From positions 134,440 to 198,439 of the forward strand of contig CAVZME010000009.1 of assembly GCA_963776385.1 (NCBI GenBank): a stretch of DNA of 64,000 nucleotides, given 5' to 3'. Under the pieces are notes generated by a model, which worked only from the letters and a program-made list of their open reading frames with translations, had not been told where the DNA came from and searched no databases. Position 1 is the first letter of the stretch. Every line of letters begins with the position of its first letter. This DNA is from an uncultured Chloroflexia bacterium (GTDB lineage Bacteria; Chloroflexota; Limnocylindria; Limnocylindrales; CSP1-4). Below, piece by piece: positions 1 through 47,216 of the stretch. The position numbers and the translations under genes are program-made.

Positions 1-1
1 G

Positions 2-183
2 GTCGCGATGGAGCGATACGGCCCACGTCACGGCGGCCGAGCAGCACCAGGCCGCCGACCTCCTCGACGTGCCCTGGCAGTTCAGCCGGTGACAGTCATC
101 CCGACAGTCACGGACCCCTCGAACGGCGTCTTAGGCCGTCGTCGGGAGCAGCCCGAAGTCCGCGGCCCATGCAAGGTCGTTGG
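2..183 (+). pseudogene. 3-prime fragment of a tyrosine recombinase (integrase) gene; the window starts inside it; frame-disrupted; paralogous to 8781..8960
   Basis: With one frame slip it reads VAMERYG.HVTAAEQHQAADLLD, the conserved C-terminal end of tyrosine recombinases. The DNA aligns block-wise with 8781..8960 (atggagcgatac, caggccgccgacctcctcgac, gacagtcacggac, cccgaagt) up to the shared gttgg end. Confidence 0.45.
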
Positions 184-639
184 ATACGACGATTTGATCT
201 CGACCGCGACCACGACGGCGTGGGATGCGAGTGACCGCAACGTACCGTAGTCGCGAAACGACGACCACCGCCGAGTTCCAGTTCAAGTAGGACGCCTCCA
301 CAAATGTTCACAGCGACGGGCAGGTACCTCCCCCTGCCCGTTGCAAGTGAAGGACCCTGGCCCGCCTTCAGAGCCCGGGGTCCCTTCATGCCCGGTGCCG
401 GAGGACCCAGCCGGACGTCGAGGCGACCGCCGACGCGTGGCTCGCGGCGTGGAAGGAGCAGACGGTCCGGGACAGCGTCGAGGGGCGGCGCGGCCTCGAG
501 GACGAAGTCGACGAGCGCAGCGGGGGCCGAATGGATCTCCAGCGAGCCACTGCGCATCTGGAATCTGGCCGACCATCAGCATGACAATGGATGCTGGCGC
601 GCTGATCGAAACCGCCAGACCCGCACGGAGGTACGGCGA

Positions 640-840
640 ATGACTACCAAGGCTGGCGACCACATCGTTGTCGCATCGGACAAGGTCGGGATCCCCGAGC
701 GTCGCGGCGAGATCCTCGAGGTTATCGCCCATCAGACCGGCGTCGAGTACCGGGTCCGCTGGGACGACGGACACGAGAGCAGCATCCGCCCCCACGGCAG
801 CAGCGCGAGGATCGAGCGAACCGGGAAGACGAACGCGTAG
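640..840 (+). CDS. DUF1918 domain-containing small protein
   Basis: GGAGG lies a few nt upstream of the ATG at 640. The 66-aa product MTTKAGDHIVVASDKVGIPERRGEILEVI..YRVRWDDGHESSIRP fits the GDxIxV..RxGxIxEV..YxVRWxDGHE pattern of actinobacterial DUF1918 proteins. The upstream part of ORF 304..840 is R/P-rich and not credible. Confidence 0.7.
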   Translation: MTTKAGDHIVVASDKVGIPERRGEILEVIAHQTGVEYRVRWDDGHESSIRPHGSSARIERTGKTNA

Positions 841-1622
841 GCGATCGAAGCTGCCTGCTGTGTCCTACGCGACGAATTGCCCCCCTCGTGAGTGGGCGAG
901 GTGCTTTGGCCGAGACGTCCCCCGGATAACGCCGCAACACCCGCTCGAGCTCCTCGGCCGCCATTGGTCGGCCGGTCCGATTGCGCCACTCCTCGTTGGC
1001 GCCGGCGATGACTCGGCGCGGAGGCGCCGGTCGAGACTCTGCTTTCGCGCACGATCGAGGTGCTTCCAGGTAGTGTCAACCCGATCGAGGTCGAGCGGGA
1101 TCGATATGGTGCCGCGTTGGAGCCTTACCGCGACCCGCTCTCGCCCTCGCGATCCGAATCGGTGAACGGGCGCCGGCAGAGTAGACAGACCTCGCGCACC
1201 GCGAGCTGATGTCGAGCGTGTTCGGCGAGGCCCCGCTCCCCGCGCTGGGCAGCCGCCCGGATGATCTCGGCGCGGATGAAGTCATCCCGCTCGCGCTTGA
1301 ACGCTGCCACTTTCTTCGCGCTCGGACCGGCCGCAAGTTGACGACGGACGGCTGCCTCCCGGCGATGCTTGTCGCCACTCGACTCTTGGCGGCATTTCGG
1401 GCGTGTGGCGCGGAGGAACGCCTTGTACGAGATCTGGGCCCGTCGGGCACGTTCGGGCGGGTCGAGCCGGCCCTCGGGATCAACGCGTGCCTCGAACCGG
1501 CGCCATGGCTCCGCCGGCGCGAAGCCTCCATCGCCAGCAGGCCGCCCGGAGATCGCGTCCAGGAGACGTCGGCGGCCCGATCACGATATTCCCCATTATC
1601 GTGAGGAGGCGCCGCCCCTACC

Positions 1623-2207
1623 CTATCTATTCAGGTCCCGCGTGAGCGATGCCAGCCAGGCGCTCGCTCCACCATCCGCCAGTCTCGCCGCGAACCGCTC
1701 CTCGACGATCGAGTCGACGATCCAGCCGTCTCGCGAACGTCTCACGGATCTCGCGCTCGGTCACGCGGCGGGGACCCGTGTCGCCCGGCTGGTATTCGTT
1801 GAAGCAGAGCAGGAAGTAGCGCCCAGCGGGCCGGAGGGTCGAGTGGAGGCTCCGCTCGAACCGGACACGGTCGGCGTCCGAGAACGTGTGGAATAGGCTC
1901 AGTTGATCGCGCGTGGAACGTCCGTCGAGGCCGTCGAGGACCTGGGCACGGCGACGAGGAATCCACCTTGATGTCTCGCTAGTCGCCTATGGCGCGAGCC
2001 CGCTCGATCGCCGTGGGCGCGGCATCGACGCCGACGACGTTAAGGCCCCGTGACGCGAGGTAGAGCGCGTTCTCGCCCGTCCCGCAGCCCACGTCGAGGA
2101 CGGCACCCTCGATCGCTCCATCCTCGGCGAGGCGAACGATCGCGGGCTGCGGCCGCCCGATGTCCCACGGTGGCTCGCCGCTTCGGTATGCCCACTGAAG
2201 CCCTGCT
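1623..2207 (-). pseudogene. Class I SAM-dependent methyltransferase, degraded (internal stop, at least two frame changes, no start codon)
   Basis: The minus strand reads WAYRSGEPPWDIGRPQPAIVRLAEDGAIEGAVLDVGCGTGENALYLASRGLNVVGVDAAPTAIERARA (motif I VLDVGCGTG), then TAG at 1987..1989. The continuations LFHTFSDADRVRFERSLHSTLRPAGRYFLLCFNEYQPGDTGPRRVTEREIRETF and GWIVDSIVEERFAARLADGGA.AWLASLTRDL sit in two other frames, ending at TAG 1623..1625. Confidence 0.7.
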
Positions 2208-2348
2208 CAGAAGGACACTCGGACCGGCAGGATCGGACGAGGCAGCCAATCCTGTGCTCGCTAGAACGACCTCGGGGCAACCTCGAGAATCGAGCCGCGG
2301 ACTCGTCAGAACCGGCGCTGCGGCCCGGGCCTCGTGCAAGGGACGAGG

Positions 2349-2891
2349 CTAGCGTGCCCGCCCACGGATCTTGACGACGACGGGTACTGGCCGTGGGCGG
2401 GCGGCAGACCCATGAGGCGCGCCGGACCCAGGAACCTCTGCCTGACGGATGCTTGCCCGCCTGGCGGCGAGATAGACGTGCATGATGTTGCGCACCTCGG
2501 CGGCGGTCAGTACCTCGTCCGATCGAAGCGCGTACTCCACCCCGGCCGTCCGATCGGCACGCTTTTCGGGGCCCACGTCCCGAGGCTCGGCAACACCAAG
2601 GCCGCGCGCGAGCGACTGGGCCGTCTCGAGAGTTGGCCGCCGCCTGGTCCGAAGCAGTCGTGAGATCGTGGAGTGGTGGACTCCGGTCTTGGTCGCCAGC
2701 TGCCGCTGTGTCAGCCGACTCGCCTTGAAACTCACGGCCAGCCACTCGTTGAAAGCCGCGGGGCCTTGCCTCGACGATCCCGGAGCAGGGTCGTCCGTTG
2801 GTTCACGCGTCGGTCGTTCGGCGTCGGTGGATGTCGCTGAAGTTGGTTCGCCGCCCGTCGTCGGTCCGATGACGGCGGAGTCGGTGGTCAC
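2349..2891 (-). CDS. XRE-family helix-turn-helix transcriptional regulator
   Basis: 180-aa ORF. The central LTQRQLATKTGVHHSTISRLLRTRRRPTLETAQSLARGLG is a classic HTH_3 motif. The N-terminus is low-complexity P/T-rich. Confidence 0.7.
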   Translation of the reverse strand: MTTDSAVIGPTTGGEPTSATSTDAERPTREPTDDPAPGSSRQGPAAFNEWLAVSFKASRLTQRQLATKTGVHHSTISRLLRTRRRPTLETAQSLARGLGVAEPRDVGPEKRADRTAGVEYALRSDEVLTAAEVRNIMHVYLAARRASIRQAEVPGSGAPHGSAARPRPVPVVVKIRGRAR

Positions 2892-3358
2892 GGCTGTTTA
2901 CTCCTTGGTGGATCTCGACGCGGAAACACAAGTCGATGAGTCCACCCGATCATCGGGTCCCCGGACGCGGCCGGCATTGGCGTGACCAAGCACAACGGGA
3001 CGCCATCGGTTGCCACATCCGCGCAACATCGCTTGCACGTGACGCCAAGACCGAGCGCGACCGCTGGGACGCCGTTCACGACGCCCCTGCCGGCCGGCTG
3101 GACTGTCCGGCCCGCTGACCTTCGATCCTGGCGTCCCCGGCTGGTCCGTGACGGCCCGTTCCACCAGCTGCAGCCACGTCAGGCGCAACCGCAGATGTTC
3201 ACCGGGACTGGCGTGGACGATACAGCCGCGCTGCTTTAGCTCGGACGATCGTCTCCGCGGCGTGCGGCAGCGACCTGTTCGGCACGGCGATCCTGAGATG
3301 TCAAATGACTTACGTTCGGTCGTCAGCAACCTTGCGAATCGTGCGACCTAGCGAGATT

Positions 3359-3395
3359 TGCCTCCGGCGGTAGGACTCGGACCTACGGCCAAGCG
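3359..3395 (-). repeat. Duplicated 3-prime half of tRNA-Asn (putative distal att site of an integrated element)
   Basis: tgcctccggcggtaggactcggacctacggccaagcg matches 8958..8994 (tggctccggcggtaggactcgaacctacgaccaagcg) at 34 of 37 positions in the same orientation. No matching 5-prime tRNA half follows. Confidence 0.6.
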
Positions 3396-3498
3396 ACCAC
3401 GTCCAGTGCGACACGCTCTCGTGAGTGGGGCGTCGACCGAATGTGCCGCCGTCAGTTGCACTCTCGAGAACGTCAAACCCCGCGCGGACATTCGGACC

Positions 3499-3627
3499 GT
3501 GAACAAGGTCCTGCTCACCGGGCTCCTCACGCGCGACCCGGACATGCGCAGCCTCGCCATCGGAAAGAACGTCACGACGCTGAGTGATGCCGTTCTCACA
3601 ACGCCATCGGCCCTGCGTGACGTCTAG
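3499..3627 (+). pseudogene. Single-stranded DNA-binding protein (SSB) N-terminal stub
   Basis: From the GTG at 3499, VNKVLLTGLLTRDPDMRSLAIGKNVTTLSDAVLTT resembles the start of the SSB OB fold (MNKVxLxGRLTRDPExR...G..V..F.LAV). The frame stops after 42 codons. Confidence 0.45.
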
Positions 3628-3768
3628 ACCACGCCCAAACATCGCCACGAAGGCACCACCGACGCCGGGGCCCGCCCGGTTCGGTCGAACGGGTCGCGCC
3701 TGAAGGCGTCGACTGGCGTTGAGTCGAGGAGTCGTGGGCGTACCATGATGGGCCGAAAGGGTGAGCCA

Positions 3769-4203
3769 ATGAATGTCGACGGGATCTTGCGTGCAAAGGG
3801 CGCGACGGTGGTCACGATCAGGCCCGACCACACCATCGGTGACCTCGTCCGCGGCCTGCGCGAGGAGCGGATCGGCGCGATGGTCGTGAGCGAGGACGGC
3901 CGATCCGTGCTGGGGATCATCTCGGAGCGCGACGTGGTCCGCGGACTCGCGGAACGCGGGCCGCGAATCCTCGACGTGCAGGTGTCAGAGCTGATGACGC
4001 GGGATGTCGTTTCATGCGCGCCTCGGGACACCGTCAAGCAGGTCATGGCCGAGATGACCAGGCGCAGGATCCGCCACCTGCCCGTGATCGCCGAAGGCGC
4101 GCTTTGCGGCATCGTCAGCATCGGCGACGTCGTCAAGAACCGCCTCGAGGAGATGGAGACCGAGACGAACGTCCTGCGCGAGGTGTACATCGCTCGAACG
4201 TGA
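3769..4203 (+). CDS. CBS domain pair protein
   Basis: MNVDGILRAKGATVVTIRPDHTIGDLVRGLREERIGAMVVSEDG..LGIISERDVV and DVVSCAPRDTVKQVMAEMTRRRIRHLPVIAEGALCGIVSIGDVV are two canonical CBS motifs. The ORF track starts at 3745; the ATG at 3769 fits homologue N-termini better. Confidence 0.85.
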   Translation: MNVDGILRAKGATVVTIRPDHTIGDLVRGLREERIGAMVVSEDGRSVLGIISERDVVRGLAERGPRILDVQVSELMTRDVVSCAPRDTVKQVMAEMTRRRIRHLPVIAEGALCGIVSIGDVVKNRLEEMETETNVLREVYIART

Positions 4204-4246
4204 AGGGTGCCCGCGGACGCGCTTGAAATCGAGGCGTGACGAGGGC

Positions 4247-4432
4247 TTAGTTCACCCTCGATCGCCTGGCCCGAGTCTCCTGGATCTCGCAGCGGCGCAC
4301 CTCGATGGCCGCGGCGTGCTCGATGCGGAGCACCTCGATGCGAGCCTCAAGGTCGAGGTCGAGGGTCACCCCCTCGCGCCGGTCGGTGGCGGCTCGCCAG
4401 TCGGCGAGGATGGTCTCGACTGTTCGGTCCAT
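4247..4432 (-). CDS. Hypothetical small helical protein
   Basis: 61-aa ORF with a balanced, non-R/P-rich composition (MDRTVETILADWRAATDRREGVTLDLDLEARIEVLRIEHAAAIEV). No recognisable family. Confidence 0.3.
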   Translation of the reverse strand: MDRTVETILADWRAATDRREGVTLDLDLEARIEVLRIEHAAAIEVRRCEIQETRARRSRVN

Positions 4433-4854
4433 GAGACTGGACCTCTCTCGCTAGGGGACGCGGAGTGTGCGCGCGATCGTCGCGCCGCACAATCCGAACA
4501 GGGGCGAGAGCCTGACGACGTTCAGTGGCGCAGTTGCGCTGAGGCTCTCCGCGGGCGGACGCGCGATCCCGTGGTTCCTTGCGCGCGACCGAGAATGCGA
4601 TCCGATGACGTCGGCGTCGTCGAACGTCTCGCCATTCGAGAGGCGACCCATCCGCGGGCGGCGTTCGCGACTCTGCGGCGCCGCCTTTTCTGCGAGGGGG
4701 GCAAGGTCCCCTAGGCCCCACACGGCTGGTGGGCGGGCTCCTTGTCACATTGGAAAGGATCTCAGTACGAGCCTCACCAATCGCCCCGGTCGGCCCGGAC
4801 AGGCTAGCCGCATGACGCGGGATCGCGCGTCCGGGACCGGAGCCGGGGCTGTTG

Positions 4855-5235
4855 CTAGAGTGCGCAGGCCGCGAAAGACGCTCCAATCAACGGGCCGAAG
4901 GCGTCTTCGAGGTGGTCGAGTCCCTTGCCATTCCCGAGGTTCGGGTTGTTGCTGCCCTCGCCGATGGTCTTGTCGGTACGGAGCGTCAAGGAATCGGGGC
5001 CGCCGTGGGACGACCAGTAGGCGATGAAGCAGTCTGGGTCGACCCCGGGCGGGAAGTCCGGGCTGTGGGCGAAATCAGCCACGTTCAATGTCGCCCATCG
5101 GCTCGAATTCGTGGCTTTGAGGTTCCCCTCGGCCGAGCGATTGGCGATGAAGCACTCGTGTGCGAATACCGTGCTCGCCATCAAGAGCAGTGCGGCCGTC
5201 GCGAGCGCGACGGACGCCAAGAACCGCCTGGGCAT
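4855..5235 (-). CDS. Hypothetical secreted protein
   Basis: AGGAGGG RBS before the ATG at 5235. The signal peptide is MPRRFLASVALATAALLLMASTVFA/HE. The Cys-containing mature part has normal composition. The upstream extension to 5355 in the ORF track is unlikely to be real. Confidence 0.6.
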   Translation of the reverse strand: MPRRFLASVALATAALLLMASTVFAHECFIANRSAEGNLKATNSSRWATLNVADFAHSPDFPPGVDPDCFIAYWSSHGGPDSLTLRTDKTIGEGSNNPNLGNGKGLDHLEDAFGPLIGASFAACAL

Positions 5236-5445
5236 CGTGATCCCTCCTATGTAGACGGTCCCCGCGGTGTCCGCATGGTCTACTCCCACCGTCCACGTCC
5301 CGTCTAGCCTTGTGGTGCGCGGTGTCACCACAAGCGGACGTGGCCGAGGCCGCATGGCCGCGCTCGCAACCGATGCTTCGTCCTTGGGAACAAGACGACG
5401 TGGGGCTTCCGCCCTGATCCAGTGACGCCGAAGACGATCGAGCCG

Positions 5446-5604
5446 TTATCGCGAGGTGAGGAGCCGGATCGAAGCCGCTACCACGATGACCGACCCCATG
5501 ATCACGATGGACCCGACGCCCGACGTGATCCCGATCACCATGAACCCGATCCCGATGACCTCGCCCACTGCCGGCGGAATGCGGAAGCCCGTCGTTCTGA
5601 GCAT
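5446..5604 (-). CDS. Possible small hydrophobic membrane peptide (52 aa)
   Basis: This ORF is below the track cutoff. It reads MLRTTGFRIPPAVGEVIGIGFMVIGITSGVGSIVIMGSVIVVAASIRLLTSR, with two predicted TM stretches. It lies directly downstream of the lipoprotein gene. The RBS is weak. Confidence 0.3.
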   Translation of the reverse strand: MLRTTGFRIPPAVGEVIGIGFMVIGITSGVGSIVIMGSVIVVAASIRLLTSR

Positions 5605-5825
5605 GCTGTCAGTTCCCCTGGGCACACACCAGCGGGGCTACGGCGGGACGCTGCGGTCCGGGGTCGGCGTGATCCCTGGAGTCTGCGCGTGTCGAGCGGG
5701 AATTGATACAGCGGTGTTTGCCAGCGTGGATAGCAGGACGACGCGGTGAACGCCGCGTGTCAGGCGTGACACCTCCCATCGCACCATGTCTCGCCGAGCC
5801 GTGAGGGGCGCGTCAGCGCCGTTCA

Positions 5826-7369
5826 TTAGTTGGTGATCGTGATCACGAAGTCCTTGTTCGCGCTGGTGAGGGTGCCTGTCGCGCCAAGAAACTCGCCCGT
5901 GCCGCCGATGATCGTCCCGTTGTCCGGCCGGAGCTCGCCACCGAGGTCGACGGTCTCGTTGATCACGATCTGCCCTCGGTCGGTCAGGGTGATCGTGGAG
6001 CCAGGACAATGGAGCAGGAGACTGCCAGTGTCGATGAAGAAGCATTCGAACGTGATCGTTCCGACCTCATTTCCGGTTGCCGCGTCGAACATGCGGGAAC
6101 CGCCGAGGAGATAGTCACCCTGGCAGGACGTTGCATTCGTGCAGTGCGTGAGTGACCCAACCGAGACGCTGTTGACATCGGTCGGGTGTTCGGTGAGGTG
6201 GACCGTCTGCGGCGCGTTCGCCGGGTTGGGCGAGGCCATGACCGGCTGGGTCGCACCCGGCAACGGGTTGGTAGCGTCCACATGGGTTGTGAACGTGATC
6301 ACGAAATCGCCGCCGGTGGGGAGCGACGTGCTGACGACAGAGCCCGTCGCGCCAAGGAACTCGCCTGTGCCGCCGGTGATCGGCGCGGTCGCCGGTCGCC
6401 CTGAGCCATCGTCGTAGAGCGTCTCGGTGAAGGCGATCTCCCCTCGTCCGGCCAGCCTGATGACATTGCCGGGAGAGTGGAACAGGCTGTGGCCGGTGTC
6501 GACCACGAACTCCACGTACACGAGTGTTCCGACATCCTCGTTTGTCGCCGCATCCACCAACGGGACAACCCCGAGGCGGTAGTCGCCCTGGCAGAACATG
6601 GTGTTCGTGCAGTGCGTGAGTGAACCAACGGGGACGTAGAGACTGTTGCCGGCCACATGCAGGGCGACGTGGAGCGTCTGGGGCTGGTCGCTGGCCGGCG
6701 ACGCCGCTGGCGCTGCGAGTCGGCGTGGTGATCGTGATCACGAAGTCGCCGCCCTCGGTGTAGGTGCTGTCGGCGGGGCTGGTGACGAACCCGATCGCGC
6801 CGAGGAACTCGCCGGTGCCGCCGGTGATCGGCCACGGGTCCAGGGCATAGCCAGGAGCGAAGTGAACGTCTTCGACGTAGTCGATCTGCCCACGCCCGGT
6901 CAGCGTGATCGTGTTGACCGGGGCAGTGGAACAGGCTGGTGGCCGTGTCGACGCTGAAGCATTCGAACCGGAGGCTGCCAACTTCCTTCCTGGTCGTCGC
7001 GTCGAGCAGCGGGTCGTCCCCCACGACATAGTCGCCCTGGCAGGCTGTCGCGCTGGTGCATCCCGTCAATGATCCAACTGAGACCTGGGTGACGTTCCTC
7101 GCCGGCTCGAGGACGTGGATCGTCTGCGACTGGCTGGCAAGTGGCGCCTGGCTGACACTCGGCGGCGGGCTTGCACTCGGCGGCGGGCTTGCACTCGGCG
7201 GGGACACCGTCCTGGCCACGCTGGGGGACGGGCTGGCATCGGGGTTGGCGCTGCTGCAGGCGGCGAGCCCGATAGCCATGGTCAAAAGACACGCGCCGAG
7301 CAGGCGGACGCTCGGAGCGCGCGACGGAAAGGTGGACGTCACTCGAACTGTCTCGTCATTCACGCCCAT
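5826..7369 (-). CDS. Lipoprotein with three tandem dirigent/allene-oxide-cyclase-like beta-barrel domains (two frame changes as sequenced)
   Basis: Lipobox LLTMAIGLAAC plus a PS-rich linker. Three units of about 135 aa each carry VSVGSLT.CT....CQGDY, FEC/VEF..DT..SL.HCPG, ITL.GRGQI and ITGGTGEFLGA.G...S....GDFVITIT. The pieces are joined from ORFs 6299..7540, 6115..7029 and 5826..6656. DNA repeats such as gtgcagtgcgtgagtga occur at about 6145 and 6610. Confidence 0.7.
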
Positions 7370-7962
7370 AGCGTGGTCACCGAATCCGAGGCGCCTTGAG
7401 GATGAGCGGGAGCGATTGGTCAGGGTCGCGACTGAAGTAGGCGGCACCGTGAGTGGCGTTTCCCGCCTTTGCTCGGATGCTGCGCCGAATGGACCGTGGC
7501 GAGCCAGGCCATGCAACCCCTCATGGGGGCCATTCGGCACTGGTGCCGAGCAGAATTGCGAGGGGCCGACAGCTCCCCTGATACCGCCGCAGCACGCGCT
7601 CGAGCTCCTCGGCCGTGGACTCCGGCAACGGCGGGATGCTGCACATCTCCAAAGCGGACAGGGTCGATGAGTCTCGAGGAGGCGCAGCTCGATGGCGCAG
7701 GATCGGATCGCTGCGTGGGAGGGTCCGGGACGCGGAGCGGGGGCCGGTCAGATCACCAACGTCGGAGAATTCGAAGCGATCGCGCGACGAACGCCGCTGC
7801 CAGTGCGCCGGATGGCCCCGGGCATGTCGTCGATCAGACCGATCGTCTCCCTCGATCGCGAGCCCGACGTCGGGCCAGGCTCTCCGTGGTCGGGCGGCTT
7901 CGACGGTTGCGCTTTCGGCTCGGCGGGCCCGCTCTTCGATCCGCTCATTGGTGCGGTCCTCG

Positions 7963-8256
7963 CTAGTCCCCTGTCGCGCGTGACGTGAACCAGATGATCG
8001 TCGCCCCGATGATGCCGAGCGGTACGATCCAGATGATCAGGAGTAGCCAGATTGTGCTCGAAGAGCCGGAATGGTCACCCAGGGCCATCGAGCTTGCCAG
8101 CCAGACGACCAAGCCGATAACGAACCAGGCTACCCACACGGTGGCAAGGAGTGCCAGGCCAAGGCGTCGGGGCCACGAGCGGCGTGGGGGGCGTCCGGCG
8201 TTCGTCACGAGACCCGGTTGTCGCTGGTCGGCCGATCCACCGTCGTTCATTCCCAC
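7963..8256 (-). CDS. Hypothetical small membrane protein (two TM helices)
   Basis: 97-aa ORF with LGLALLATVWVAWFVIGLVVWLA and IWLLLIIWIVPLGIIGATIIWF hydrophobic helices. Confidence 0.45.
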   Translation of the reverse strand: MGMNDGGSADQRQPGLVTNAGRPPRRSWPRRLGLALLATVWVAWFVIGLVVWLASSMALGDHSGSSSTIWLLLIIWIVPLGIIGATIIWFTSRATGD

Positions 8257-8319
8257 CCTTCCCGCACTTGAACCTGCCAGTCAGACGCGCTGCTCTCGCG
8301 AGTGTTGCGGACGCCGCCT

Positions 8320-8880
8320 GCCCTGAGGCAACTCGGTCCCTGGCCAGTCAGGCCTCCGAGATCCTCGGCCTCGCTCGCTCCGACCTCGACCTCGACCTCG
8401 AACGCAGGACGGTGACGATCCGCCAGCAGCTCTCCGGGTCGGGCACTAGGGCCAGGCTTCGTCGAGACCAAGACCGCCTCTTCGGTCGCCACGATCCCGC
8501 TTCCGATGTTCGTGGTCGATCGACCGCGGGCCCATCTGGCCCGCATCGACGCAGAGCGGCCCATCGTCCCGCTCGGTGACTCGCTCGTCTTCGTCACCGC
8601 GAGAGGCCTGGCAGTCAACGCCTCCTGGTTCACGAAGCAGTTCCAGGCCTTCTCGCCGGTGCTCGGCTCCCCCGGATGCGCCTCCATGACTAGCGCCATG
8701 ATGCGGTGAGCCTGCCCGTGGACGCTGGTCCTCACCCCCGCATCGCCCAGGAGCTGCTCCGGCATGCGCCCGGCAGCAGGGTCACGATGGAGCGATACGC
8801 CCATGTCAGGGCTCCCCAGTAGCGCCAGGCCGCCGACCTCCTCGACCGGGCGCTCGCCGATCCATCGTTGACAGTCACGC
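8320..8880 (+). pseudogene. Tyrosine recombinase/integrase, N-terminally truncated and frameshifted
   Basis: Fragments lie in different frames: SEILGLARSDLDLDLERRTVTIRQQL, ..VETKTASSVATIPLP, MFVVDRPRAHLARIDAERPIVPLGDSLVFVTARGLAVNASWFTKQF, ..HPRIAQELLRHA..VTMERYAHV. It abuts the tRNA-Asn 3-prime end. Confidence 0.7.
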
Positions 8881-8886
8881 TGACAG

Positions 8887-9480
8887 TCACGGACCGGCGA
8901 GGGGTCGTCTCAGAGTGGCTCGGAGCAACCCGAAGTGGGGCCATTCGTGCAGGAAGTTGGCTCCGGCGGTAGGACTCGAACCTACGACCAAGCGGTTAAC
9001 AGCCGCCCGCTCTACCACTGAGCTACGCCGGAGCGAGGACGCCGGGTCCCGGGCGAACGCCGAGGCCGCAAGCGTCATGGGCGCCGGGGAGGCGCCGCGC
9101 GACAGGATAGCACGGAGACCCGGCGCGACAGGACGCGGCCCTGGGTCAGGCCCGCCGCGCACGGCCCGGAGCTGGAACCCGGCGAAGACCTGCATGAAGC
9201 CGAGGACGACCAGCCAGATCCCGCCGATGAAGGCGAGGGTGACCGCCGAAGAGATCGGGTAGGTCAGGATGACGATCCCGGCAAGGATCCCGAGCAGGCC
9301 CATGAAGATCCGCCAGTTGCGGCCCTGCTTCTGCGAGAACGCAGCGACGAATGTCATGACCCCCTGGACCAGCCAGAAGATCCCGAGCACGAAGATGAAG
9401 ACCTCGACCGACTGGAACGGCGTCCGCAGGAGCGCGAAGCCGACGATGACCGACAGGACGCCGATGATCGCGTGGAGCAC
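8887..9480 (-). CDS. HdeD/DUF308-like membrane protein; 3-prime end doubtful (the ORF reads through the tRNA-Asn gene)
   Basis: GTG start. The first 115 aa or so form four Gly/Ile/Leu-rich helices (IIGVLSVIVGFALL, VFIFVLGIFWLVQGVMTFVAAF, IFMGLLGILAGIVILTYP, FIGGIWLVVLGFMQVFAGF), typical of DUF308. The remainder is R/P/A-rich and overlaps the tRNA. A TGA at 9146..9148 in another frame would give a normal length. Confidence 0.5.
   Translation of the reverse strand: MLHAIIGVLSVIVGFALLRTPFQSVEVFIFVLGIFWLVQGVMTFVAAFSQKQGRNWRIFMGLLGILAGIVILTYPISSAVTLAFIGGIWLVVLGFMQVFAGFQLRAVRGGPDPGPRPVAPGLRAILSRGASPAPMTLAASAFARDPASSLRRSSVVERAAVNRLVVGSSPTAGANFLHEWPHFGLLRATLRRPLAGP
8958..9032 (-). tRNA. tRNA-Asn (anticodon GTT), CCA encoded
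   Basis: The reverse complement folds as TCCGGCG TA GCTC AGTGGTA GAGC G GGCGG CTGTTAA CCGCT TGGTC GTAGG TTCGAGT CCTAC CGCCGGA G CCA. The cloverleaf is complete and the anticodon loop is CU-GUU-AA. Confidence 0.9.
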
Positions 9481-9563
9481 CCGGCTGCCCGTGTCGCCGT
9501 CACGAGTGAACGAGGTGACCTCCTCGACGATGCCGCTGACACCAGTCCGGCATACTCGGAGCG

Positions 9564-41850: not shown

Positions 41851-43350
41851 ATGACCGAGACCGTCCGGACCCCGATCGGCCGCGCCGATCCTGAGCCGAC
41901 CGACGACCTCGACGGCGGCCTCGCCGTCTCGCCCGGCGACATCGGCGAACGCCTGTGGCACTTCTTCATCTCGATGCGGACCGGGCTCGCCCTGATCCTC
42001 GCGCTGGCGGTCCTCGGCCTCATCGGCACGATGCTCGTGCAGGCGCCGGCCGGGCTGGCCAGGCGACCCGAAGGCCTACGCGGCCTGGCTCGAGTCGCTC
42101 CGGCCGAAGTACGGCGGCTGGACGGGCATCTTCGACACGCTCGGCTTCTTCTCCATCTTCAACTCGGTCTGGTTCCGCGGCATCACGGTCCTGCTGATGA
42201 CCAGCGTGCTGGCGTGCTCGGCAACCGGGCGCCGCACCTCTGGAAGCTGACCGTCCACCCCCGGACGGACATGAGCGAGCCGTTCTTCAGCCACGCGCCG
42301 CTGAGCCATGCACGACCGCCGGCCGGCTCGCGCCCGGCGGCAGCCGCCGCGATCGTCGCAGGCGGCCTTCCGGCGACGCCGCTTCCGGACGATCGTCGCA
42401 CGACGACGGACGACACGATCCACGTCTACGCCGACCACAACCGCTGGGGCCCGTTCGGGACCGTCATCGCCCATCTGAGCCTCGTGGTCATCCTCGTCGG
42501 CGCGCTCGTCGGGACGGCGTTCGGGTTCCGCAACGACGGCCTCGCGGTCGCCGTCGGCTCGACCGTCGACATCGGCAACGGCACCGGGCTGACGGTCGAG
42601 GCCACGCAGCTTCTCCGACTCCTACTACGCGAACGGCAGCCCGAGCGACTACGCCAGCGACCTCGTCGTCTACGCGACGGCCAGCAGGTCGGCGCCGCGA
42701 CCGTCCGGGTCAACCAGCCGATGCGCGTCGGCGACATCACCTTCTACCAGTCCTACTTCGGGGCCGGCGGCCGCGATGAAGGTCAGCGACGCGCTCGGGC
42801 AAGGTCCTCGTCGACGCAGGGCGTGCCGCTCGAGTGGACCTCGAACGACGGGACGCGCACGGTCGGCCATGATCACGCTGCCCGACGCCGGGCTGACGAT
42901 GTACGTCCTCGGCGCCGTCTCGGGTGAGGTCGACCCGACCATCAAGCCCGGCCAGATGCAGGTCGAGCTCTACAAGACCGGGGCCGAGAGCGCCCCGCTC
43001 GCCACCGCAGATCGTGACCCAGGGCAAGCCGGTCGACATGGCCGGTCTCCAGGTCACGTTCGTTCGCGAGCGCCAGTTCACCGGGCTCATCGTCGCCGAG
43101 GATCCGGGCGCGATGTTCGTCTGGCTCGGCGCGATCCTCCTGGTCGGGGGCACCGCCCTCGTCTTCTTCTTCCCATGCCGCCGGGCCTGGGCGCTCATCC
43201 GGCGACGGCCCGACGGCACCACCGTCCATGTCGGTCGGTGCGGTCGTCCGGCACGACGTCGGCTTCCAGGCCGAATTCAAGCGCCTCAGCGCGGAGATCG
43301 AGCAGGCCGTCGATCGAACCGGCCGGTCCACTGAAGGAAGGGATGGCTGA
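41851..43350 (+). CDS. resB: Cytochrome c biogenesis protein ResB/Ccs1 (several frame changes as sequenced)
   Basis: GAGGAG RBS. The sequence includes LWHFFISMRTGLALILALAVLGLIGTMLVQ, WLESLRPKYGGWTGIFDTLGFFSIFNSVWFRGITVLLMTSVLACS, GPFGTVIAHLSLVVILVGALVG, VRVNQPMRVGDITFYQSYFG and FTGLIVAEDPGAMFVWLGAILLVGGTALVFFFP. Confidence 0.8.
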
Positions 43351-43353
43351 CCG

Positions 43354-44261
43354 ATGTTCAAGATGTCCGAGTACAGCTTCCTCGCCGGCGGTCCTGTCGG
43401 TCGCCCTGGCCCTCGGCTGCTACGTCCTCGCCTTCGCCTCGTAGCCTCGTCGCCAGACGGCGAACGACGTTCGCGGTGGCCGGCGCCGGCGGCGGCACGG
43501 TCACGATCGACGCGCCCGCCATCGACGAACGGCATCGGTCTCGGCACGTACGGGACGCTCATCACCTGGCTCGCCTTCGCGTTCCTGACGCGCATCGCTC
43601 ATCTTCCGGACCATCGCCGTCGGGCACGGCCCGTTCGCGAACATGTACGAGTTCTCGGTCGCGTTCGCCTGGGGCACCCTCGGCGATGTATCTCTACTTC
43701 GAGCACCGCTACCACCAGCGCGTCCTCGGCCTCATCGCCCTGCCGGTCGCGCTGCTGATGCTGCTCTACGCGGCGACCATCACCGCCGGCTCGACCGACC
43801 CGCTCGTCCCGGCCCTCCAGAACAACCTCCTGCTGTCGGTCCACGTCGCGGTCGCGATCGTCGCCTACGGCACGTTCACCGTCGCATTCGCGAGCCGCCA
43901 TCCTCTACCTCGTCCAGACCGACAAGGGCCGGCGCGGCCTGCCGCAGCCGCGAGCTGCTCGACGAGATCTCCTACAAGGCGGTGATGGTCGGCTTCCCGT
44001 TCCTGACCCTGACGATCGTCCTCGGCGCGGTCTGGGCCGACGTGGCCTGGGGCACCTACTGGAGCTGGGACCCCAAGGAGACCGCGTCGCTCGTGACGTG
44101 GCTGATCTACGGCTCCTACCTCCACGCGCGGGTCGTCCGCGGCTGGCGCGGCGAGCGCGCCGCCTGCTCCTGCTCGTGGGCTTCGCCGCGGTGCTCTTCA
44201 CCTACTTCGGGAACTCTTCTTCGGCGGCCTGCACAGCTACAGCGGGCTCAACCGGAACTAG
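43354..44261 (+). CDS. resC: Cytochrome c biogenesis haem-handling protein, ResC/CcsA type with WWD motif (several frame changes as sequenced)
   Basis: The Trp-rich signature is [32 protein letters not shown]. It also has [36 protein letters not shown] and a C-terminal GGLHSYSG. Confidence 0.8.
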
Positions 44262-44315
44262 TCACGGATCGAACGACACGAGCGCCCCGAGACGCCCGGG
44301 ACGCAGGAGGACGCG

Positions 44316-44931
44316 ATGGAGACGACGGCATCGATCGAAGGCACCGGCCGGGCGACGTCCCGGCGCGAGCCGGGTCAGGACGCTCGCGGTCATGGCGATC
44401 ACCGCGGTGATCATCGCGGCCGTCGTGTTCATCGTGAACCAGCCCACGGCGGCAGCCGGCGGCGTCACCGAACGTCACGCTCACCGGGCGGCGGCCGGGC
44501 CAGGCGCCGACCGTCGGCCAGCCCGCGCCGGACTTCGCGGCGACGACCGTGGACGGCCGCCGGTCAAGCTGAGCGACTTCCGGGCAAGCCGGTCTGGCTG
44601 ACCTTCGGGGCCAGCTGGTGCCAGCCGTGCCGGGCCGAGAACCCCGGACATCAAGCGCCGTGTACGAGACGCCAAAGGCGAGCGGCCTGGAGGTCCTCGC
44701 GGTCTTCATCTCCGAGGACGCGGCCGCCGTCACGTGACTACGCCGACCGCGTCGGGCTCGACCTACGACAAGGTCGCCGACCCGAACACCGACGATCGCG
44801 TCCGCAGTACCGGATCCTCGGCATCCCGTCGCACTTCTTCATCGACAGCGACGGGCGTCCTGCGGGAGATGAGGATCGGCAGCCTCGACCAGGCCGCGAT
44901 GGAAAGGGCGATCGCGGGCATCCGCCAGTGA
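44316..44931 (+). CDS. resA: Membrane-anchored thiol-disulfide oxidoreductase ResA/TlpA family (several frame changes as sequenced)
   Basis: GCAGGAGGA RBS. The TM helix is [18 protein letters not shown]. It has [38 protein letters not shown] (thioredoxin WCxxC) and [20 protein letters not shown]. Confidence 0.8.
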
Positions 44932-44934
44932 CCG

Positions 44935-46591
44935 ATGGCGGGACCGCCGCGGCGCCGAGACGCTCGACGCCTCGGCGGCATCGTCCGACAGCCGTGACGC
45001 GTCTCCGTCGGGCGGATCCGCTCGCCGATCGCCCGTCCGCTCCGGCGCGGATCCCGCATCCGAGCACTGCGCACCAGGCGTGGCCGGTTCGTCGTCCTCG
45101 TCCTCGTCGCCGGCTTCGGGGTGGCGATCGCGGTCGGGGGCGTGGCAGCCATGAGCTGGACCGAGACCGCCGACTTCTGCGGCCGCTGCCACACGATGGA
45201 CCCGGAGCTCAAGGCGTACGAGATGTCGCGCGCATCGCGAGGTCCCCTGCGCGGAGTGCCATGTCGAGCCCGGCGTCGTCGGCTGGGTCAAGGCCAAGCT
45301 CAACGGCACGCGTCAGCTCATCGGCGTCCTGACCGGGCACCTTCCCGACACCGATCCCGGCACCCGATCACGCCGATCTGCCGCCGACGAGCGCGACCTG
45401 CGTCCGCTGTCACGATCCGAAGGCGCTCGTCGCCAACGGCGGCCCGGTCAAGCTCGTCATCCAGGAGCAATTCCACGGAGGACGAGCCGAACACCAAGGA
45501 CACCATCGCCCTGGTCCTCCGGCCGGCGGGCTTCGGCGACCCCGAGCCAGGCCCGCGGGCGTGCACTGGCACATCGACTCCGAGGTGGACTACATCGCCG
45601 CCGACCCGCGCGCCCAGACCATCGACTACGTGACGATCAAGGAGGACGACGGCGCGTCGGAGGAGTTCATCGCCTCGTCCCAGGTGACCGACGTCGGGCG
45701 AACGTCCAGCCCGACATCGACCGGCTGAAGGCCGAACGGGGCCACCCGCCGGATGGACTGCATCGACTGCCACAACCGGGCCGGCCACGGCATCCCGACG
45801 CCGGACCAGGCCATCGACGACTCGCTGTCGACCGGCGCGATCGACGCAGAGACCTGCCCTACATCAAGCGCGAGGGCGTCGATCGCTGTCGAACCGCGAC
45901 TACGCCTCGGTCGGCGGATGCGGACCGGGCGATCGCCGCGCTGCGGCTCGTTCTACGAGACCCGCTACCCGCTCGTGAGCCGAGTCGCAGGCCGCCGAGG
46001 TGGACGAGGCGATCGCGGACCTCCAGCGCATCTACCGGCTGGTCGCCACGCCCGAGATGCGCGTGACCGGGACGACCTACCCGAACAACCTCGGCCACCA
46101 GTCGGCACCCGGCTGCTTCCGCTGCCACGACGGAGCGCACTACAAGGTCGAGGACGGGGTGCTCACCAAGCAGGCCATCCCGTCGTCCTGCGCGACCTGC
46201 CACACGTTCCCGCAGATCGGGTCGACCGAGTCCGGCGTCCTCATCGGCCAGCGACCGGCGAGCCACGACGATCGACTCTGGGTGTTCGACCACAAGTCGA
46301 GCGCATCCGCGCTCGATCCTGCAGGTACGGCCTGCGGCGCCTGCCACACGCGCACGTACTGCGAGAGCTGCCACAAGACCGCAGCGGTCCAGGTGAAGCA
46401 CGACGACATGATCTTCAACCACGCGGAGGTGATGAAGAAGACCGGCGCCCAGGGCGTGCGCCTACTGCCACCAGCCGGCGTACTGCTCCCAGTGCCACGC
46501 GGAGCCCGTCCTGCCGAACCCGTTCAGGACCGATCCGTCCGCCAGCCCCCCGGCTGTGCTGCCGGACCCCGTCCCGTCGCGCACGCCATGA
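44935..46591 (+). CDS. Membrane-anchored decahaem c-type cytochrome with a NapC/NirT(NrfH/CymA)-like N-terminal module (many frame changes as sequenced)
   Basis: The TM helix is FVVLVLVAGFGVAIAVGGVAAM, followed by TETADFCGRCHTMDPELKAYEMS.H..VPCAECHVEPGVVGWVKAKLNGTRQL, the NapC/NirT signature. There are ten CXXCH motifs in total: CGRCH, CAECH, CVRCH, CIDCH, CFRCH, CATCH, CGACH, CESCH, CAYCH, CSQCH. The stop is at 46589..46591. Confidence 0.8.
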
Positions 46592-46604
46592 AGGAGGTCC
46601 GCCG

Positions 46605-47216
46605 GTGACGATCACTGCCCAGCGGGTCCCGAGGGGCTCGGGCTGGATGAGCATCCAGGAAGCGTCGAACCTGATGGGCGTGTCTCCGGCCACCCTCCGG
46701 CGGTGGAGCGATGCCGGGCGGATCCGGACGTTCACGACACCCGGCGGCCATCGACGGTTCAGTCGCGCCGCCGTCGACGCCCTGCTCCCGGACGACGCGA
46801 CGGCCACCCCGCAGGACCACCGACCGGCGATCGACACCGACCTCCCGTGGTTCGTCGCGCTCGATCCGGGGACGCGCCGGCGGACGCGTCAGCAGGTCCA
46901 CCAGATCGCCGAGGCACTGGTCTCGGCGACCGTCGGGCGAACGGCGGTGGAGCGGGACTACGCGTTCAGCCGGGCCGAGATGGCCACGACCCGCTGTGCG
47001 GTGCTGGCGGCCGGATCCGGCGTCGGTCTTCGCGAGACGGTCGAGGGATTGTTGACGTTGCGCGGCCGATGTCTCAAGGCGATCGACGATCCGGGCTCGG
47101 TCGGCGGAGACCAGGAACGGGCGTCGGTCGCGTCCGTCGAAACCCTGACCGGCCTGCTCGACCGGCTGCTGTGTCATGCGATGCGGGCCCACGAGGCCGC
47201 GAGCGGCCGATCCTGA
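46605..47216 (+). CDS. MerR/excisionase-type HTH DNA-binding protein
   Basis: AAGGAGG lies 7 nt before the GTG at 46605. MSIQEASNLMGVSPATLRRWSDAGRIRTFTTPGGHRRF is an HTH_17/MerR-type motif. The frame is intact within ORF 45753..47216. Confidence 0.7.
   Translation: MTITAQRVPRGSGWMSIQEASNLMGVSPATLRRWSDAGRIRTFTTPGGHRRFSRAAVDALLPDDATATPQDHRPAIDTDLPWFVALDPGTRRRTRQQVHQIAEALVSATVGRTAVERDYAFSRAEMATTRCAVLAAGSGVGLRETVEGLLTLRGRCLKAIDDPGSVGGDQERASVASVETLTGLLDRLLCHAMRAHEAASGRS

Follow-up and report, generated by a model that had tools for sequence, protein, structure and literature searches.

A Ten-haem Cytochrome Gene Directly after resA

The window analysed here, a stretch of 64,000 nucleotides from the genome of an uncultured Chloroflexia bacterium (Limnocylindrales, CSP1-4; assembly GCA_963776385.1, contig CAVZME010000009.1, positions 134,440 to 198,439), carries on its + strand, directly after a resA-like gene, an imcH-like gene (44928-46591) for a cytochrome c with one transmembrane (TM) helix and ten haem motifs, whose reading frame changes about 16 times in the assembled sequence. 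Three-frame translation of the + strand of positions 44300-46700 located ten CXXCH motifs that together use all three frames, i.e. CGRCH (45178), CFRCH (46114), CATCH (46189), CGACH (46333) and CESCH (46360) in frame 1, CAECH (45248), CAYCH (46457) and CSQCH (46484) in frame 2, and CVRCH (45399) and CIDCH (45759) in frame 0; no open reading frame (ORF) holding all ten was found in the raw window sequence. At codon level, about 13 frame jumps were seen in the conserved part of the gene, and stitching of 13 in-frame pieces gave a protein of about 507 amino acids free of internal stops, the whole gene product being of about 550 amino acids.

A first-pass annotation of this DNA, made from the letters alone, had described a ten-haem protein with a NapC-type N terminus, encoded immediately after resA and ending at 46591, and these points were borne out. 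The ten motifs are invariant in an alignment of 32 homologues, so they are not chance occurrences; one hydrophobic helix precedes FCGRCH, and the S.H, CAECH and KAKLNG signatures are all present; the preceding gene codes for a ResA-like thioredoxin with a WCQPC motif; and the stop codon is the TGA at 46589-46591. The start codon, which had been placed at ATG 44935, had to be moved. The frame of that ATG terminates after 20 codons, whereas GTG 44928 in frame 0 reads VTDGG..., as the homologue N termini do (VTDGE or MTD...), and overlaps the resA stop as GTGA, a 4-nt overlap that is also present in the gene calls of the relatives L002 and L003. For these reasons ATG 44935 was dropped and the comparison makes GTG 44928 the most likely start; the gene is probably translationally coupled with ccdA-resB-ccsB-resA.

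The single N-terminal TM helix FVVLVLVAGFGVAIAVGGVAAMSW is encoded at 45088-45159 (+ strand, as are all segments below); it was recognised in a hydropathy scan of homologues and in the alignment of 32 homologues, and it overlaps the NrfH TM helix in a profile alignment. A conserved Glu, in WTETADFC, stands directly after this helix. The NapC/NrfH-like core (45178-45413) follows, with haem 1 (CGRCH-T-M, 45178), S.H, haem 2 (CAECH, 45248), KAKLNGTRQ, which holds a conserved Lys and a conserved Gln, and haem 3 (CVRCH, 45399). The middle part (45414-46113), which aligns over its full length with an ImcH-type protein of Geomonas, is ImcH-specific; it begins with a β-rich insert that contains GVHWHID and continues with haem 4 (CIDCHNRAGH, 45759) and a domain of helices, in agreement with the AlphaFold2 model. 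Haems 5 (CFRCH, 46114) and 6 (CATCH, 46189), at 46114-46203, complete the six-haem core common to all ImcH homologues, and a clade-specific C-terminal extension (46333-46498) adds haems 7 to 10 as two doubled motifs, CGACHTRTYCESCH (46333, 46360) and CAYCHQPAYCSQCH (46457, 46484). This extension matched the Pfam families Cytochrome_C7 (40.6 bits) and Paired_CXXCH_1 (22.2 bits) and is invariant in the 32-homologue alignment.

A NapC/NrfH-like N Terminus in a Single Long Protein

The similarity to NapC/NirT proposed in the first-pass annotation was upheld by profile searches, in which the stitched protein matched Pfam PF03264 (Cytochrom_NNT) with 40.7 bits against a cut-off of 24.1, over profile positions 9-102 of 174; the score on the raw frameshifted DNA was only 23.2 bits because the frameshifts shorten the match. 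The NCBIfam NrfH model TIGR03153 gave an E-value of 5e-15 and the TorC and NapC models matched weakly, all of them far under the equivalog cut-offs (the TorC/DorC matches had E-values of 3e-8 and 3e-7, with model cut-offs of 455 and 478 bits). In agreement with the NapC/NirT/NrfH superfamily, the protein has a membrane anchor made of a TM helix followed by FCGRCHTM and a Lys after haem 2. It departs from the compact tetrahaem form of about 140-200 amino acids by its ten CXXCH motifs, its length and the roughly 117 residues between haems 3 and 4.

Ten-haem relatives, whose search had been proposed, were readily found. More than 1,300 homologues were retrieved among 5.8 billion proteins searched, the best of them with 75-81% identity across 95-99% of the query; the majority are 470-690 amino acids long, and PF03264 is present in 120 of the 120 homologues listed. 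The homologue sequences are single ORFs with ten CXXCH motifs. Their database names, such as "NapC/NirT family cytochrome c [Candidatus Limnocylindrales]" and "nitrate/TMAO reductase-like tetraheme cytochrome c subunit" (TMAO, trimethylamine N-oxide), are misleading. A split of the corrected sequence into a tetrahaem NapC gene plus an independent hexahaem gene was rejected, since every intact homologue is one ORF: more than 100 homologues of 470-690 amino acids and 20 genome loci show a single ORF with one TM helix.

Besides the ten CXXCH motifs, ten further His residues are invariant in the 32 homologues (H96, H205, H207, H278, H379, H393, H435, H444, H480 and H487, in P0002 numbering, used throughout), as are M84 of CXXCHxM, K117 and Q123, and E73 is nearly so (at least 90% of the sequences). 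The stitched protein of the window shows 81-83% identity to intact homologues encoded in a single ORF and retains all of the 123 columns that are invariant in the family; an apparent miss at S94 is a codon lost at a stitching junction and not a substitution. When the family profile was compared with solved structures, only NrfH was found (2j7a_C, E-value 2.6e-8), with K117 aligned to NrfH K82 and Q123 to NrfH D89. The AlphaFold2 model has a mean predicted local distance difference test (pLDDT) of 65, with values under 50 in most of the C-terminal haem domain, which is to be expected of a model without haems, but it shows strands at residues 168-241 and helices at 283-372 with pLDDT above 90. 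A Foldseek search with this model recovered NrfH alone, at the N terminus (probability 1.0; template modelling score 0.48, normalised on NrfH). As a side observation, in homologue P0073 a low-complexity stretch of about 45 residues, rich in Gly, Ser and Ala (approximately residues 170-215), is inserted just before GVHWHI, which suggests that this position is a surface loop.

The Protein Belongs to a Deep Branch of the ImcH Family

In a BLASTP comparison P0002 matched a 507-residue ImcH-type protein of Geomonas oryzae with 36% identity over 402 amino acids (E-value 3e-78), from the anchoring helix through haem 6 and including GxHWHI, MDCxDCHNR and PGCFRCHDG. The Geomonas ORF has three hydrophobic segments, FCGELCH (CX3CH) as its first motif and six CXXCH motifs at 157/206/312/429/449/487; it was taken as ImcH type because it fits the published descriptors of Geobacter ImcH, i.e. 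three helices, seven motifs, the first of them CXXXCH, and a NapC/NirT region (Levar 2014, PMC4251993), as well as the tabulated motif positions of GSU3259 and Gbem_3199, both 507 amino acids long with motifs at 132/156/205/311/428/448/486 (PMC6295460, Table S3). Haem motifs 1 to 6 of P0002 stand at 78/101/151/269/385/410, a spacing that matches positions 132/156/205/311/428/448 of GSU3259. The ImcH homologues surveyed in 2018 carry 6 to 10 haem motifs (Zhong & Shi 2018, PMC6295460, abstract), and they include as accepted members the one-TM exceptions of Intrasporangium calvum and A. thermophila (PMC6295460). The I. calvum protein, WP_013492697.1, has 569 amino acids, one TM helix and ten motifs at 104/127/177/295/411/436/496/505/538/547 (PMC6295460, Table S3), and the full-length orthologue in L084, an intact relative syntenic with the window, has them at 107/130/180/299/415/440/488/497/529/538. 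The architecture and spacing are thus essentially the same, as far as a comparison by published motif positions goes.

A locus scan with one genome per GTDB species gave 580 related loci confirmed by tblastn and, beyond the Chloroflexota-type loci, matches of 33-40% identity in Geobacter, Geomonas, Acidobacteriota, Myxococcota and others. Architecture classes were counted over 83 loci, across which the haem 1-6 spacing (about 24, 49, 106-118, 117 and 20-25 residues) is kept while the number of haem motifs takes the values 6, 7, 8, 9, 10, 13 and 16. The class with one TM helix and ten CXXCH motifs comprises 20 loci, from Chloroflexota/Limnocylindria and some metagenome-assembled genomes (MAGs) labelled Actinomycetota. 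Four more rows of the same clade have 9, 9, 9 and 7 motifs, two of them (L008 and L022) lacking a TM segment. Three Chloroflexota loci encode one TM helix, CX3CH and eight CXXCH; the classical ImcH class, usually with three TM helices, CX3CH and five or six CXXCH, occurs in Geobacteraceae, Acidobacteriota and Bacteroidota; and a class with CX3CH plus 12 CXXCH (13 haems), with three TM helices except in L053, occurs in Myxococcota, Acidobacteriota and Deferrimicrobiota. A single 16-motif protein comes from Methylomirabilales (L029). These 13- and 16-motif homologues, mostly with three TM helices (L029, L039, L053, L062, L063, L065, L066 and L073), indicate that C-terminal haem extensions arose more than once in the ImcH family.

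Before haem 1, the ten-haem clade has one TM segment as compared with three (range 2-5) in the Geobacter and Acidobacteria loci, and the CX3CH first motif is absent from all 24 rows of the clade, which have CGRCH followed by x-M. In a maximum-likelihood tree the window protein stands next to that of L084 inside this 24-row clade (Shimodaira-Hasegawa-like approximate likelihood ratio support of 100), and a branch of 1.47 substitutions per site parts the clade from all CX3CH-type ImcH. Judged from these sequence comparisons, the window gene belongs to the ImcH family as broadly defined, without the three helices, the CX3CH and the seven haems of the narrow Geobacter-type description, and the ten-haem clade is placed as a deep sister of classical (Geobacter) ImcH. 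The first-pass view of a NapC/NirT-like anchor expanded to ten haems thus stands in substance but not as a new kind of protein: the family is ImcH, the ten-haem expansion has been listed since 2018 with a one-TM member (PMC6295460, Table S3), and the window gene is a further member of that listed subtype. Literature searches on ImcH together with Intrasporangium or Chloroflexota yielded nothing beyond this 2018 survey (PMC6295460) and FeGenie-style gene counts in metagenomes.

Compared with ImcH of Geobacter sulfurreducens (GSU3259), the window protein is alike from the anchoring TM helix to haem 6, including the spacing of haems 1-6, the β-rich GxHWHI insert between haems 3 and 4, the CxDCHNRxxH fourth motif, the PGCFRCHDG fifth motif, and the Glu, Lys and Gln around haem 1. 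ImcH differs in having three TM helices, CX3CH, seven haems and Y188, as against one TM helix, CXXCHxM, ten haems and a Phe. The roles of E127, K173, Y188 and a Gln near haem 1 in the ImcH quinol site are model predictions (10.1101/2023.05.03.539133); of the corresponding residues proposed for the ten-haem proteins, E73, K117 and Q123 show the conservation given above, and the equivalent of Y188 is F132. The NrfH of Desulfovibrio vulgaris (PDB 2J7A, 2VR0) shares the single N-terminal TM helix, the CXXCHxM haem 1, a second haem 23 residues after the first and a Lys near the quinol pocket. In contrast, NrfH and NapC have only 140-200 amino acids and four haems, six fewer than the window protein, which their Pfam model covers only in the part mentioned. 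The pentahaem TorC/DorC anchors, which match weakly at profile level, resemble it in joining an extra C-terminal haem domain to a NapC core; TorC, however, adds a single haem and serves a molybdoenzyme, and no such partner is encoded at the window cassette.

The Gene Is Part of a Conserved Cassette

The resA-like gene (44316-44931, + strand) encodes a thiol-disulfide oxidoreductase and is itself frame-damaged; its stop TGA (44929-44931) overlaps the start of the imcH-like gene, and the ResA orthologue of L084 matches the Pfam families AhpC-TSA (88 bits) and Redoxin. On the other side lies a MerR/HTH_17-type regulator gene without frame damage (46605-47216, + strand), with a GTG start at 46605 and AAGGAGG 7 nt upstream. 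The contigs of three relatives share the gene order of a multihaem cytochrome of about 400-480 amino acids, a cytochrome-like protein of 730-1344 amino acids, PCYCGC, TPR, CcdA, ResB, CcsB (Cytochrom_C_asm), ResA-like thioredoxin, the ten-haem gene and MerR/HTH_17; the L002 gene at the CcdA position has no Pfam call, and the large cytochrome of L084 has a PT-rich linker, seven CXXCH motifs and one CX3CH. The PCYCGC-domain protein (PF13798, 76 bits) is encoded between the cytochromes and the maturation genes both in the window (39430-39975) and in L084 (4287-4826).

In a tblastn survey the series cyt4h-cyt8h-TPR-ccdA-resB-ccsB-resA was found upstream of the ten-haem gene (imcH10) in all loci of the ten-haem clade for which 5 kb or more of upstream flank is available, so that the ten-haem gene closes the cassette, with few gaps: L021 lacks a ccdA match, L011 lacks a cyt8h match, and L008, whose ImcH-type ORF has neither a TM helix nor the first motif, shows only the MerR-type gene. 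Upstream PCYCGC matches are confined to L002-L004 and L084, those of L012 and L021 lying downstream, and a MerR-type match lies 3' of the gene in about half of the loci, mainly those of closer relatives. The nine-haem one-TM subclade of three Caldilineales MAGs (L025, L026 and L027) has homologues of both cytochromes about 5 kb downstream and no ccs genes nearby, and classical ImcH loci have none of these cassette neighbours. The recurrent linkage of the two cytochromes to ten-haem and nine-haem ImcH genes led us to propose them as electron partners. Geobacter imcH is monocistronic, whereas the window gene lies inside a System II maturation operon and would be co-transcribed with ccdA-resB-ccsB-resA.

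In L002 (12514-21014) a complete set of haem biosynthesis genes (GlutR, porphobilinogen deaminase/HEM4, ALAD, aminotransferase, URO-D, ferrochelatase and radical SAM) comes directly after the cassette and the MerR gene; haem synthesis, maturation and cytochromes would in that case make up a single super-cluster. Five loci of the ten-haem clade (L005, L010, L011, L016 and L022) come from MAGs labelled Bifidobacterium, Actinomycetota or Solirubrobacterales, although their cassette is that of the Limnocylindria-type loci. Either some of the labels are mistaken, as is probable and in the Bifidobacterium case certain, or the cassette moved between phyla.

The ten-haem gene is the sole PF03264 match in the genome of the window. 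A role as NrfH-type partner of a nitrite reductase was rejected, NrfA (PF02335) being found neither in the genome nor in the cassette. MenA is encoded in this genome (224 bits against a cut-off of 102), so that menaquinol would be available as a substrate; MqnA of the futalosine pathway was not found in it. A single-protein search found the family in 10 of 95 high-quality genomes of the class and in 7 of 34 genera, with no match in the five congeners sampled, whose flanks are 69-76% identical and not syntenic with the locus.

Frameshifts Are Concentrated in a Six-gene Block

Statements on frameshifts rest on comparative evidence, with the L084 locus (82% identity) as the reference. In DNA alignments against it, the conserved part of the imcH-like gene contains 13 frame-breaking events, all of them insertions of 1-2 nt in the window and none a deletion, and about three more frame changes in the poorly conserved N-terminal tail bring the total to about 16. 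Indels with a length that is not a multiple of three (non-3n) were counted per gene in gene-by-gene MAFFT alignments, as tblastn undercounts them when short segments fall below the E-value threshold. There were 7 in TPR, 3 in CcdA, 16 in ResB (10.7 per kb), 9 in CcsB (9.9 per kb), 11 in ResA (17.9 per kb) and 13 in the imcH-like gene (8.6 per kb), and the first-pass description of the last as the most frame-damaged gene therefore did not survive, ResA, ResB and CcsB all having higher densities. Among the neighbours, PCYCGC, MerR, hydrolase, GGDEF, MarR, FGGY and hyp212 have none, and MFS and the 3' part of the large cytochrome have one each.

The indel-rich block (40057-46452) thus extends over TPR, ccdA, resB, ccsB, resA and the imcH-like gene, with 51 non-3n insertions and about 8 non-3n deletions with respect to L084. 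The inserted bases are C (28), G (14), A (9) and T (5), and 14 of the 46 single-base insertions adjoin an identical base. In-frame stops are absent, the ratio of nonsynonymous to synonymous substitution rates (dN/dS) is 0.18, a value between those of two intact neighbours (0.25 and 0.14), and nucleotide divergence is lower in the block than in its flanks. The genome is assembled in 12 contigs, yet it is only 78% complete by marker genes.

Proposed Role and Alternative Explanations

Biochemical work has established ImcH as a menaquinol oxidoreductase that oxidises menaquinol analogues, reduces PpcA and delivers protons to the P-side (Pimenta et al., preprint 10.1101/2023.05.03.539133), and it is required for high-potential extracellular acceptors (PMC4251993). 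From the family membership, architecture and synteny described above we infer for the window protein the following substrate, partners and direction of flow. A role as quinol entry point is plausible from the homology to ImcH. The protein consists of a short cytoplasmic tail, one TM helix, a predicted NrfH-like quinol site at haem 1, the six-haem ImcH core and the four-haem extension. In the structure of NrfH, 2-heptyl-4-hydroxyquinoline N-oxide is bound beside haem 1. Menaquinol would be oxidised close to haem 1, on the outer side of the cytoplasmic membrane, with the protons released outside, and the electrons would be carried along the ten-haem chain, the haems of which are probably mostly bis-His ligated, as the ten extra invariant His residues fit; haem 1 may have Met or Gln as its ligand instead. 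The four extra haems, arranged as two doubled CXXCH-x4-CXXCH units, would lengthen the wire towards extracytoplasmic cytochromes, and the two multihaem cytochromes of the cassette are the likely acceptors, which would make the cassette a pathway of electron export, i.e. of extracellular electron transfer.

We give this reading as a whole, an ImcH-family cytochrome with one TM helix and ten haems that passes electrons from menaquinol into the cassette and is encoded by a gene with artefactual frameshifts, a probability of roughly 0.7. Several points weigh against it. The function of the one-TM ten-haem clade may differ from that of the characterised ImcH, given the number of TM helices, CXXCHxM in place of CX3CH, the haem count and the change of Y188 to Phe, and to our knowledge ImcH has been studied experimentally in Geobacter only; the partner cytochromes are named from synteny only. 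Electrons might also flow the other way, the protein acting as a quinone reductase that receives them from extracellular donors (Fe(II), Mn(II) or reduced humics) via surface cytochromes, as was proposed for the NapC/NirT-family proteins CymA and ImoA in iron oxidisers. NapC/NirT-type proteins are thought to be bidirectional (PMC6295460, PMC9600427), the carriers of the gene are mostly soil and groundwater MAGs of Limnocylindria type and not known metal reducers, and the direction of flow is not fixed by sequence alone. We nevertheless regard this reverse flow as unlikely, since up to 2018 Fe(III) reducers were the only organisms in which ImcH homologues had been found (PMC6295460), the haem potentials of ImcH (-358 to -150 mV) are in a range that fits the oxidation of quinol with transfer to acceptors further along the chain (10.1101/2023.05.03.539133), and no Cyc2- or MtoA-like oxidase markers were seen in the cassette, although no search was aimed at them. 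Very improbable, in our judgement, is the view that the protein is not a general gateway for export but a membrane anchor dedicated to a single terminal reductase of the periplasm, as in NrfH-NrfA, NapC-NapAB or TorC-TorA. The NrfH-like N terminus and the weak TorC matches would agree with it, and in TorC, too, a C-terminal haem domain is joined to a NapC core, but NrfA is missing from the genome, the conserved cassette has multihaem cytochromes and maturation genes in place of a molybdoenzyme or another reductase, and the full-length homology is to ImcH and not to NrfH, NapC or TorC.

The artefactual nature of the frameshifts, in turn, has to be weighed against real damage, in which the TPR-ccdA-resB-ccsB-resA-imcH operon would be inactivated as a pseudogenised module being lost or by an unusual local indel mutagenesis. 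The edges of the block lie 65 nt within the first gene of the six-gene run and 139 nt short of its final stop codon, and the neighbours on both sides are clean; random assembly error would not be expected to follow gene boundaries so closely. The indels of the block are nearly all insertions, C-biased and not of homopolymer type, whereas a second patch (C8, see below) is mixed, and with the family absent from the five congeners sampled and present in few high-quality genomes of the class, it is conceivable that the lineage is in the course of losing the module. On the other hand, bacterial decay is deletion-biased, and neutral decay lasting long enough for about 59 indels should bring hundreds of unconstrained substitutions. 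Neither expectation fits a block in which insertions far outnumber deletions, no nonsense codon occurs, all 123 invariant columns are kept, dN/dS is like that of intact neighbours and divergence is below that of the flanks; comparable indel-dense patches are found elsewhere in the assembly. We therefore consider real damage improbable; the frameshifts most likely reflect errors of the consensus where the assembly is poorly resolved, and the organism probably has an intact gene.

A divergent single-helix ten-haem branch of ImcH is widespread in Limnocylindria-type Chloroflexota of soil and groundwater, where it is always linked to a cytochrome c maturation operon beside two multihaem cytochromes of surface type. 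The capacity for such electron transfer may be underestimated by surveys for Geobacter-type ImcH only (three helices, CX3CH). A more interesting lead than the gene itself is the conserved cassette, in which soil Chloroflexota may have a pathway for electron export. Its genes together might constitute a pathway of extracellular electron transfer that is complete in itself and occurs patchily among these Chloroflexota and in some MAGs labelled Actinomycetota, a tentative proposal to which we assign rather less than even odds. Were it true, it would represent an uncharacterised route from the menaquinol pool to the surface in Terrabacteria that carries its own cytochrome maturation machinery, and if the cassette works as proposed, minerals or humic substances could serve abundant, uncultured bacteria of the soil as partners in electron exchange.

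Other Damaged Patches

A hidden Markov model of the phase of third-position GC content (GC3) flagged about 68 patches, approximately 9% of the assembly, about a dozen of them as strong as the block in the window. The frameshifts of this genome thus come in patches, which should be corrected with reads before pseudogenes are called. One patch, at about 260400-265400 of contig C8 (L090, 3442-8434), contains 44 genome-specific non-3n indels in 5 kb (25 deletions and 19 insertions); these were counted in a three-way MAFFT alignment in which two reference genomes had to agree, as blastn at 76-80% identity overcounts through paired artefactual gaps. At the beginning of the window (1-9500; 134440-144000 of the contig), 67-90% of the bins were classed as noncoding by the GC3-phase model and the GC content is lower (0.66-0.68); this region could be foreign DNA, sequence that truly does not code for proteins, or DNA in which the frames are very densely damaged. 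Finally, two public proteins, P0110 (740 amino acids) and P0105 (805 amino acids), consist of a ten-haem cytochrome fused to the downstream MerR/HTH_17 regulator, and the C-terminal haem region of P0110 is visibly out of frame. These fusions indicate that other public assemblies of the lineage carry the same kind of frameshift error in the ten-haem gene.

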